Positions 1,977 to 2,767 of a stretch of 18,012 nt of DNA are shown here, piece by piece. Location of the stretch: the UHGV virus genome UHGV-0176909; one strand, written 5' to 3'. Both the position numbers and the translations under genes were made by a program. Under the pieces are notes generated by a model, which worked only from the letters and a program-made list of their open reading frames with translations, did not search any database and was not told the DNA's origin. How positions within the stretch are numbered: the first letter of the stretch is position 1; each line of letters starts with the position of its first letter. Source of the DNA: a virus.

Positions 1977-2231
1977 ATGGCTAGAGATGATCCGCACTTT
2001 AACTTCCGTATGCCTATGGAAGTAAGGGAGAAATTAAAATTCAGGGCGGAGGCGAATGGGAGATCAATGAACTCCGAGTTGTTACAAATCGTCCAAGATG
2101 CTCTATCAAAACCATCGCCTGTGACTGGCTATCGCGACGAAGCTGAACGCTTGGCTGATCAGCAGGCAGAGCAGTTCAAGACTGTTGTGTTTGAGACACT
2201 TAAAAAGATTTATGGCAAGGATGATAAATAA
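1977..2231 (+). CDS. mnt: Mnt repressor (ribbon-helix-helix), 84 aa
   Basis: Translation MARDDPHFNFRMPMEVREKLKFRAEANGRSMNSELLQIVQDALSKPSPVTGYR... matches remembered P22 Mnt. It is divergent from arc-ant with the operators between them. Confidence 0.95.
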   Translation: MARDDPHFNFRMPMEVREKLKFRAEANGRSMNSELLQIVQDALSKPSPVTGYRDEAERLADQQAEQFKTVVFETLKKIYGKDDK

Positions 2232-2767
2232 TGCTGCACACAATTCATTTCTTATGCCCCGTTAACACCGCCACTGTTGGGCAACTTCAGAACCACTGTC
2301 TCACCGCATTATCTCAAGGCGCAACTGAATTAAATATCCATATATCAAGTCAGGGAGGGGAAACTGCCGCTGGTTTTACTGCGTATAACTTTCTTAAGTC
2401 ACTCCCTGTTACCGTTAGAACTCACAACATAAGCAATGTTGAATCCATAGCTAATATCGTTTTCCTGGCTGGCTCAGAACGTTTCGCAAACCCATTATCA
2501 AGATTCCTGTTACATCCTCTATTATGGGGCTTTGCCACCCCAGCCGCCGACCATGCCAGATTGAGAGAGTACGGGAAATGCCTCGATAACGATCTTGATC
2601 GCTTCGTTGAGACGTTCAATATCGACATCGGAACCCATATTAGGTGGGCATCCCTGATAGCAGACTCGACCATTTTGGATGCTAACAAGGCTCTTGAGCA
2701 TGGCATAATTAATTCCATAAAAACTGCAAGGCTGGTATCCAATCAGGCAAACTGGTGGGTTGTTTGA
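2231..2767 (+). CDS. ClpP-fold (S14-like) serine peptidase homolog, 178 aa, translationally coupled to mnt
   Basis: Its ATG at 2231 overlaps the mnt TAA stop (TAATG). By-eye alignment to E. coli ClpP: ISSQGG vs INSPGG, AGFTAYN vs AGMSIYD, SNVESIANIVFLAG vs GQAASMGAFLLTAG, RFANPLSRFLLHPL vs RFCLPNSRVMIHQP, ALEHGIINSI vs AVEYGLVDSI. Putative triad Ser72/His95/Asp145. The N-terminal region is shorter than in ClpP. Rare codons (TTA, ATA, AGA, AGG) are frequent. Confidence 0.8.
   Translation: MLHTIHFLCPVNTATVGQLQNHCLTALSQGATELNIHISSQGGETAAGFTAYNFLKSLPVTVRTHNISNVESIANIVFLAGSERFANPLSRFLLHPLLWGFATPAADHARLREYGKCLDNDLDRFVETFNIDIGTHIRWASLIADSTILDANKALEHGIINSIKTARLVSNQANWWVV

Follow-up and report, generated by a model that had tools for sequence, protein, structure and literature searches.

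Many regulatory proteins and phage proteins are under the control of ClpXP and ClpAP. A short kind of ClpP that lacks the canonical third catalytic residue has been known only since 2026 and from one chromosomal example, ClpP1 of Pseudomonas plecoglossicida (PpClpP1; structure 9UXT), described in PLoS Pathogens in February 2026 (PMC12900304). PpClpP1 forms a homotetradecamer without the N-terminal region and with an ungated axial pore of 42.7 Å, its "triad" consists of Ser73, His96, and a proline, and its peptidase efficiency is 13-fold below that of the canonical paralogue, PpClpP2 (PMC12900304). Changing either the serine or the histidine to alanine abolishes the activity, 60% is kept when the proline is changed, and the canonical ClpP2 without its aspartate keeps 13–16% (PMC12900304). 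PpClpP1 does not bind ClpX; its stable heterotetradecamer with PpClpP2, however, has a higher activity and does work with ClpX (PMC12900304). A deletion mutant has growth and motility defects, the protein was overproduced in Escherichia coli and purified with no toxicity reported, and the authors liken it to PaClpP2; phages and genomic context are not discussed in that paper (PMC12900304). Here we describe a relative of PpClpP1 that is encoded by a prophage, namely the clpP-like gene that follows the repressor gene mnt in an 18,012-nucleotide stretch of viral DNA (UHGV virus genome UHGV-0176909), the whole of which is referred to as the window.

The DNA comes from an E. coli prophage of the P22-like (Lederbergvirus) type, of which the window forms the right end; it shares 96% DNA identity with phages JEP4, phiv205-1, EC.P3, and E212 across most of its length. 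Within it, a canonical immI region surrounds the clpP-like gene. P22 itself lacks this gene; the corresponding slot downstream of its mnt holds ORF59 and sieA, which are oriented in the same way.

A short ClpP without axial loops

The preliminary description of this DNA had proposed a ClpP-fold serine peptidase, which was borne out by both sequence and structure comparisons. The 178-residue protein matches the Pfam family CLP_protease (PF00574) with an E value of 4.3e-12 and 46.7 bits against a cut-off of 20.2. An AlphaFold model, built on an alignment of 42 close homologues (A1), reached a predicted local distance difference test (pLDDT) score of 92.2 and a predicted template modelling (pTM) score of 0.88, and a Foldseek search with this model returned canonical ClpP structures at template modelling (TM) scores of 0.72–0.84 and 20–24% identity, many of them with a probability of 1.00. 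The best match was chain A of PpClpP1 (9uxt_A), with a TM score of 0.94, a root-mean-square deviation of 1.5 Å, and 38% identity; the next-best structural match was the Listeria ClpP1/2 heterocomplex (4ryf, TM score 0.80). The same preference was seen when a profile made from A1 was run against the PDB, where 9UXT was found with an E value of 5e-50 and canonical ClpPs with 2.5e-13 or weaker. All NCBIfam ClpP models, in contrast to the Pfam family, scored far below their cut-offs, the best with 40.9 bits against 228 and TIGR00493 with 22 against 308.6.

The shorter N-terminal region noted earlier was also confirmed. In a MAFFT alignment, 71 residues precede the catalytic serine compared with 110 in the E. 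coli ClpP precursor, and the model opens directly with a core strand (residues 2–7), whereas the handle-helix region is present (helix 108–132). The protein has about 25 N-terminal residues fewer than mature ClpP and carries neither axial loops nor a gate. We are highly confident that it is an N-terminally truncated short ClpP of the PpClpP1 type. A canonical ClpP it is not, for it has neither the catalytic Asp nor axial loops and reaches none of the curated cut-offs.

A conserved Ser-His pair and a non-acidic third position

Three of the four active-site assignments made from the sequence held when homologues were aligned. Gly42-Gly43, Ser72, and His95 occupy ClpP active-site positions that are invariant in the 42 close homologues and essentially so among 149 representatives of the wider family, in which the serine is found in 149 of 149 and the histidine in 148. 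The fourth, Asp145 as the third residue of the triad, did not. In two HMMER profile alignments and in a MAFFT alignment with E. coli ClpP, the ClpP aspartate falls opposite Ser146, and Asp145 falls opposite the arginine that neighbours the catalytic aspartate. Position 145 is Asp or Asn even in relatives at 68–79% identity and Glu, Gln, Lys, or Ser in the wider family, and column 146 holds Gly, Ala, Arg, Ser, or Pro, an acid being missing from its eight commonest residues among the 149 representatives. The "intact catalytic triad" was accordingly given up, for Ser and His alone are conserved and the third position is non-acidic. Two acids of the handle helix, Glu113 and Asp121, which are candidates for a substitute acid that might assist the histidine, are invariant in the close set and found in 130 and 115 of the 149 representatives, respectively.

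The family consists of Ser-His enzymes without the canonical third residue, as its solved member showed experimentally. By analogy with this 38%-identical homologue, in which either alanine substitution abolishes peptidase activity (PMC12900304), the window protein is probably an active protease, as had been suggested. The third "triad" residue of the 9UXT chain is Pro150 by HMMER-aligned count and Pro151 in the publication (PMC12900304), and Ser73 and His96 agree; the discrepancy is minor and leaves the conclusion unaffected.

The start codon lies on the mnt stop codon across many immunity alleles

The proposed open reading frame (ORF) and its start on the mnt stop codon were found to be exact: the stop codon TAA (2229–2231) and the ATG of the clpP-like gene (2231–2233) have base 2231 in common. 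To see how far this arrangement extends, we compared 38 loci carrying a clpP-like copy at no less than 79% identity. The sequence ATAATG stands at the start of the gene in all 38, and in 37 a Mnt-family ORF ends on it; in the remaining locus (L041) the upstream ORF was not found. The 37 upstream proteins comprise 13 distinct Mnt sequences that are 35–100% identical to the Mnt of the window. Their last 12 or so codons, encoding ETLKTMY[GA]KD[DE]K, are constant, including the Shine-Dalgarno sequence, and travel with the clpP-like gene; in the window this segment lies at 2196–2231. The identity of the DNA to the window ends 14–35 nucleotides upstream of the clpP-like ATG in most of the 38 loci, which places a recombination boundary inside mnt. 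Ant varies as well, with 31–98% identity beside near-identical clpP-like copies. Tandem Mnt-family matches lie upstream of the clpP-like gene in some relatives (L037, L039, L041, and L045; in L037 at 2068–2295 and 2337–2564), which points to duplication or mosaicism of the repressor gene in certain alleles of immI.

Because the space in front of it does not suffice for a separate promoter, the clpP-like gene appears to be the second cistron of the mnt transcript. Judged from the coding arrangement, the match to Pmnt, and this lack of space, co-expression from Pmnt, as originally proposed, is very likely. Pmnt is the immI promoter that is active in P22 lysogens, and the protein should therefore be made in the lysogen. 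The transcript would probably end at a GC-rich hairpin between the clpP-like gene and a convergent gene for a P63C-domain protein, which we regard as a two-way terminator on the strength of RNA folding: a 66-nucleotide stretch containing it has a minimum free energy of -17.7 kcal/mol (z -2.35). A scan for consensus terminators did not pick up this hairpin. As a published case of mnt expression we considered the prophage Gally of E. coli LF82, whose mnt is up 40-fold in macrophages, and rejected it as evidence; the mnt of Gally has no adjoining clpP-like gene.

The ratio of nonsynonymous to synonymous substitution rates (dN/dS) of the clpP-like gene against its Pectobacterium orthologue is 0.077, demonstrating strong purifying selection on the coding sequence. 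Rare codons had been read as a sign of horizontal acquisition, which failed on comparison with the neighbours. The fraction in the clpP-like gene (9.0%) is not specific to it, with 9.5% in arc, 9.9% in the P63C gene, 8.8% in gp16, and 7.3% in ant, and it is the whole accessory region that stands out against the head genes at 2–5%. We rejected rare codons and GC content as signs of a separate acquisition, the composition of the gene being that of the entire immI/accessory region.

Distribution and genomic context

At a DNA identity of at least 95%, the clpP-like gene was found in 128 of 5426 complete E. coli genomes (2.4%, about 1 in 40), always on the chromosome, and the carriers include the E. 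coli type strain and APEC O1. For almost all of these copies, the listing gives an overlap with an "Arc family DNA-binding protein". The gene is thus neither rare nor unannotated, although its annotation is misleading. Among cultured phages it is present in only a handful of E. coli phages. Relatives occur on 115 viral contigs of IMG/VR and in prophages of Klebsiella, Proteus, Pantoea, Pectobacterium, and others.

In the lambda-like-tailed PhiR12 phages, the whole ant-arc-mnt-clpP-like cassette is found among tail genes. In phage PhiR12_1 (L002) it occupies 4565–6577, between the tail-tip genes K/I and L of the lambda-like tail module, indicating that phages of unrelated types exchange immI as a whole, with the clpP-like gene in it. 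In some relatives, the clpP-like gene sits between mnt and ORF59 or a SieA homologue, which identifies it as an insertion into an accessory slot expressed in the lysogen.

More distant relatives, at 50–74% identity, have no mnt, arc, or ant nearby. Each is a lone gene on the plus strand, mostly amid late or early phage genes on the minus strand, and the gap that it occupies differs: between the lysis cassette and terminase in Klebsiella, Leclercia, and E. coli, between the tape measure gene and baseplate or DNA-circulation genes in Pantoea and others, between N and erf in Proteus, and between lysis and tail-fibre genes in Chromobacterium. The Klebsiella copy is flanked by predicted promoter-like and terminator-like sites, and a lone gene with such putative sites of its own is the classical signature of a moron. 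Across about ten kinds of context, no conserved partner such as an unfoldase was found. In an E. coli variant at 53% identity located in the lysis-terminase gap (L079–L085), a 182-amino-acid ORF at approximately 3374–3922 (+) always precedes the clpP-like gene on the same strand; this ORF has no Pfam or PADLOC match, and the pair may be a two-gene moron.

The orthologues of PpClpP1 in Pseudomonas and Azotobacter are 65–89% identical to one another and lie in ordinary chromosomal neighbourhoods. They adjoin small general-stress genes (a KGG repeat protein and CsbD; L015–L017 and L103–L179), which hints at a stress or stationary-phase role of the ancestral family. A scan of one genome per species yielded 176 loci that encode a relative. 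Most of the best 80 belong to Pseudomonas, Stutzerimonas, or Azotobacter; a few are metagenome bins, and Enterobacterales contribute no more than two (Proteus mirabilis and Pantoea dispersa). The enterobacterial clade is thus a strain-variable, phage-carried offshoot of a chromosomal family.

Proposed role and alternatives

The reading that we favour, and hold somewhat more probable than its negation, is that of an accessory short ClpP, expressed in the lysogen, that changes how the host's Clp system degrades proteins, the probable targets being phage-related. Made from Pmnt as the second cistron after mnt, the protein would, by homology to PpClpP1, form rings of seven subunits and tetradecamers whose pore is unusually wide and has no gate, its own Ser/His-dependent peptidase activity would be weak, and it would not dock ClpX directly. 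Most likely, its rings would stack onto those of the canonical ClpP of the host, giving a hybrid chamber that is more active, or active in another way, and that receives its substrates from host ClpX or ClpA. To this hybrid mechanism, which is drawn by analogy, we give a little less than an even chance. Host Clp proteolysis would be shifted to the benefit of the lysogen, with proteins of a superinfecting phage or an antirepressor-type protein as candidate targets, and our confidence in any particular benefit is lower than in the hybrid.

The gene acts as a moron, being absent from P22, variable in E. coli, and lone in several prophage gaps. Its tight coupling to mnt favours a link to immI; the solitary homologues in other prophage slots and the chromosomal location of the Pseudomonas orthologues speak for a broader role. 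Several points weigh against an accessory ClpP that modifies host proteolysis. A purely general role does not explain the strict mnt coupling of the close copies. Transcription of the gene in the lysogen is deduced from this coupling and the Pmnt match, and no transcriptome of a carrier strain was found. The oligomer, its activity, and its pairing with E. coli ClpP are extrapolations from a homologue that is 38% identical and belongs to a different host. The defence models of PADLOC-DB v2 gave no match for the clpP-like protein, two homologues, or the neighbours, and the searchable literature yielded no experiment on this protein or on any phage-borne member of the family.

A wider and more tentative proposal, which we think rather doubtful as a whole, is that temperate phages of Enterobacterales have captured a ClpP ring without gate or Asp, that they express it from lysogenic promoters, and that its hybrid with host ClpP re-programmes ClpXP and ClpAP in the lysogen. 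If this were true, lysogenic conversion would take a form here that has not been described before, and the pay-off would be the protection of lysogeny, through removal of antirepressor-type proteins or processing of Mnt, or the exclusion of incoming phages. A ClpP ring supplied by a prophage could shift host proteolysis in every lysogen, a route that was not found in the literature searched. Nor did the searchable literature contain a phage, prophage, moron, or defence role for this gene, a description of a whole clade of short ClpPs carried by temperate phages as a moron, or one of their translational joining to mnt across many immunity alleles in P22-like phages.

Given the position of the gene, the first alternative to be weighed is a protease of the immunity circuit, which would act on the C-terminal tail of Mnt, on Ant, or on Arc and thereby tune the maintenance or induction of lysogeny. 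The repressor-protease pairs ImmR/ImmA and CapH/CapP follow an analogous logic. The best argument for it is that the clpP-like gene starts on the stop codon of a Mnt-family gene in 37 of the 38 loci even though the N-terminal DNA-binding part of Mnt diverges; the constant Mnt tail that accompanies the gene and the transfer of the complete cassette into the PhiR12 phages point the same way. However, that tail holds the Shine-Dalgarno sequence and may merely mark the recombination boundary, the variability of Ant beside near-identical copies runs contrary to specific recognition of Ant, relatives at 50–74% identity do without mnt, arc, and ant, the Pseudomonas orthologues are chromosomal, and the immI of P22 works without the clpP-like gene. 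We consider a dedicated immunity-circuit protease unlikely.

Less likely again is an anti-phage or superinfection-exclusion effector that stands alone, that is, an open-pore barrel that degrades unfolded or injected phage proteins without host Clp. A position in the slot of the P22 exclusion gene sieA, the moron-typical distribution, and the wide, ungated pore of the homologue (PMC12900304) would all suit such an effector. Yet the homologue's own activity is low and is higher in the hybrid with canonical ClpP (PMC12900304), and the Pseudomonas chromosomal orthologue affects growth and motility, which is not phage-specific. In some relatives, moreover, the clpP-like gene accompanies a SieA homologue instead of replacing it, and the lack of a PADLOC match also counts against this alternative.

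The missing canonical Asp and the sub-threshold scores with all NCBIfam ClpP models would fit a catalytically dead ClpP-like scaffold, or pseudo-protease. This is very improbable, considering that Ser72, His95, and the Gly-Gly motif are invariant across about 190 family members, that the homologue with Pro as third residue is active and retains more than half of its activity when this position is mutated (PMC12900304), and that the canonical ClpP2 stripped of its Asp is still partly active (PMC12900304). We give even less credence to a toxin-antitoxin-like pair in which Mnt would be a ribbon-helix-helix (RHH) antitoxin and the ClpP-like protein a toxin that kills by ungated proteolysis. As in type II toxin-antitoxin operons, a small RHH gene comes first and overlaps by its stop codon the start of a larger second gene, but overproduction of PpClpP1 came without reported toxicity and it is the loss of the protein, not its presence, that impairs growth (PMC12900304). 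Mnt, furthermore, is the canonical immI repressor with an operator and a divergent Pant, and the pairing with an RHH gene is confined to the clade at 79% identity and above. This pair was rejected since the distant homologues, both those at 50–74% identity and those of Pseudomonas, are solitary and the overproduced homologue is not toxic.

A head-maturation (prohead) protease, suggested by the best PHROG match (PHROG 94 "head maturation protease", E 5e-21), by NCBIfam Clp_rel_HeadMat (NF045542, 49.7 bits), and by the GenBank annotation of phage phiv205-1, is the least credible of all and was rejected on position, curated cut-off, and low identity: the gene is part of immI and runs on the opposite strand, well away from the genes for portal, scaffold, and coat (11.5–16 kb) and neither fused to nor adjoining scaffold or capsid genes, the NCBIfam score is far under its cut-off of 120, identity to real phage head proteases is 22–32% versus 38% to the cellular PpClpP1, and P22-type heads assemble without proteolytic maturation.

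Organization of the surrounding region

The features of immI and of the clpP-like gene are collected in Table 1. The Mnt protein of the window is 85% identical to P22 Mnt over 81 residues. The ORF listed for ant reaches a TTG at 1722; we placed the start at the ATG at 1656, which would give a product of 292 amino acids, and the RefSeq counterpart in a related prophage has 879 nucleotides. The ORF listed for arc likewise extends to an upstream ATG at 1949. Between arc and mnt lies a perfect palindrome, which is like the Mnt operator of P22 and which we take to be Omnt. The matches to Pmnt and Pant overlap and are divergent (1921..1954), and their function as promoters would follow from the layout of P22 immI.

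Table 1. Coordinates of immI features and of the clpP-like gene in the window.
Feature	Position	Strand	Evidence
ant (antirepressor; BRO-N and P22AR C-terminal domains)	778..1656	-	Pfam P22_AR_C E 3e-29, Bro-N E 9e-20; PHROG 245 anti-repressor Ant E 9e-114
arc (53-amino-acid Arc repressor)	1725..1886	-	Pfam Arc E 3e-30, residues 24-73 of the 73-amino-acid ORF translation; matching place in annotated P22
Perfect 10-1-10 palindrome ATAGGTCCAC-C-GTGGACCTAT between arc and mnt, Mnt-operator-like	1901..1921	.	Direct sequence reading
Pmnt, TTGAGA-17-TATCAT (predicted)	1921-1949	+	Promoter scan, 10/12 consensus matches
Pant, TTGACA-17-TATATT (predicted)	1954-1926	-	Promoter scan, 11/12 consensus matches
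mnt (84 amino acids; Arc-like RHH domain and Mnt C-terminal domain)	1977..2231	+	Pfam Arc E 5e-30, Repressor_Mnt E 3.5e-12
Coupling junction: TAATG, preceded by a Shine-Dalgarno sequence AAGGA (2217-2221) within the final codons of mnt	2217..2233	+	Sequence
clpP-like gene (short ClpP paralogue, 178 amino acids)	2231..2767	+	ORF, Pfam, profile, fold, and alignment evidence
Gly42-Gly43, ClpP oxyanion-hole GG motif	2354..2359	+	Invariant in A1; Gly43 in 149/149 of the wider family
Ser72 codon TCC, catalytic nucleophile	2444..2446	+	Invariant; opposite E. coli ClpP Ser and PpClpP1 Ser73
His95 codon CAT, catalytic base	2513..2515	+	Invariant in A1; opposite ClpP His and PpClpP1 His96
Asp145 and Ser146 codons	2663..2668	+	Profile and MAFFT alignments, conservation counts
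9-bp GC-rich hairpin AAACCCACC-TGAC-GGTGGGTTT separating the clpP-like gene from the P63C gene convergent with it	2796..2817	.	RNA fold

No homologue of SieA or ORF59 was found in the window. The gene convergent with the clpP-like gene, with which it has the hairpin in common, encodes a 343-amino-acid protein (2822–3853, -) with a C-terminal P63C domain (Pfam E 8e-14) that belongs to PHROG 2384, a group of unknown function, and has no NCBIfam or PADLOC match. It is a further accessory gene in the gap between gene 16 and mnt and is found at 54–100% identity in 8 of 80 viral loci. Just upstream of gene 16, a hydrophobic ORF of 87 amino acids (3872–4135, +) lies in the lowest-GC stretch of the region (37.5%). 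It matches no family and may represent a small membrane moron. The place of this ORF corresponds to that of sieA in P22.

Comparison with known systems

With canonical E. coli ClpP (S14), the window protein has in common the fold (TM score 0.74–0.84), the Gly-Gly motif, the catalytic Ser and His, and the handle-helix region. It differs in its low identity and in the lack of the catalytic Asp, and its gene does not adjoin clpX. The phage head-maturation proteases (NF045542; PHROG 94) are likewise phage-encoded ClpP folds without ClpX-docking loops, whereas their genes have a portal gene on one side and a capsid gene on the other or form fusions with scaffold or capsid. The mnt-ORF59-sieA arrangement of P22 resembles the locus in where it lies and which way it points with respect to mnt and gene 16 and in consisting of accessory genes that only some P22-like phages carry; the clpP-like gene, however, is translationally coupled to mnt and has no sequence relationship to these genes.

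P. aeruginosa ClpP2, Listeria ClpP1, and M. tuberculosis ClpP1P2 resemble PpClpP1 in that a divergent paralogue, weak or inactive alone, is active when it stands ring to ring with the main ClpP. The genes of these second isoforms are chromosomal and full-length and encode Asp or Asn as the third residue, and we use the link to such mixed barrels as a working analogy, not as an assignment of membership. PpClpP1 itself is the closest counterpart. It belongs to the same subfamily, with 183 amino acids against 178 in the window and the same N-terminal truncation, and it has the same invariant Ser and His and a non-acidic residue at the place of the ClpP Asp (Pro, compared with Ser146 in the window). 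Its structure and biochemistry offer a working model and reagents, including the Ser and His mutants and inhibition by bortezomib. The Pseudomonas gene is chromosomal, whereas the gene in the window is prophage-borne, strain-variable, and joined to the mnt operon.

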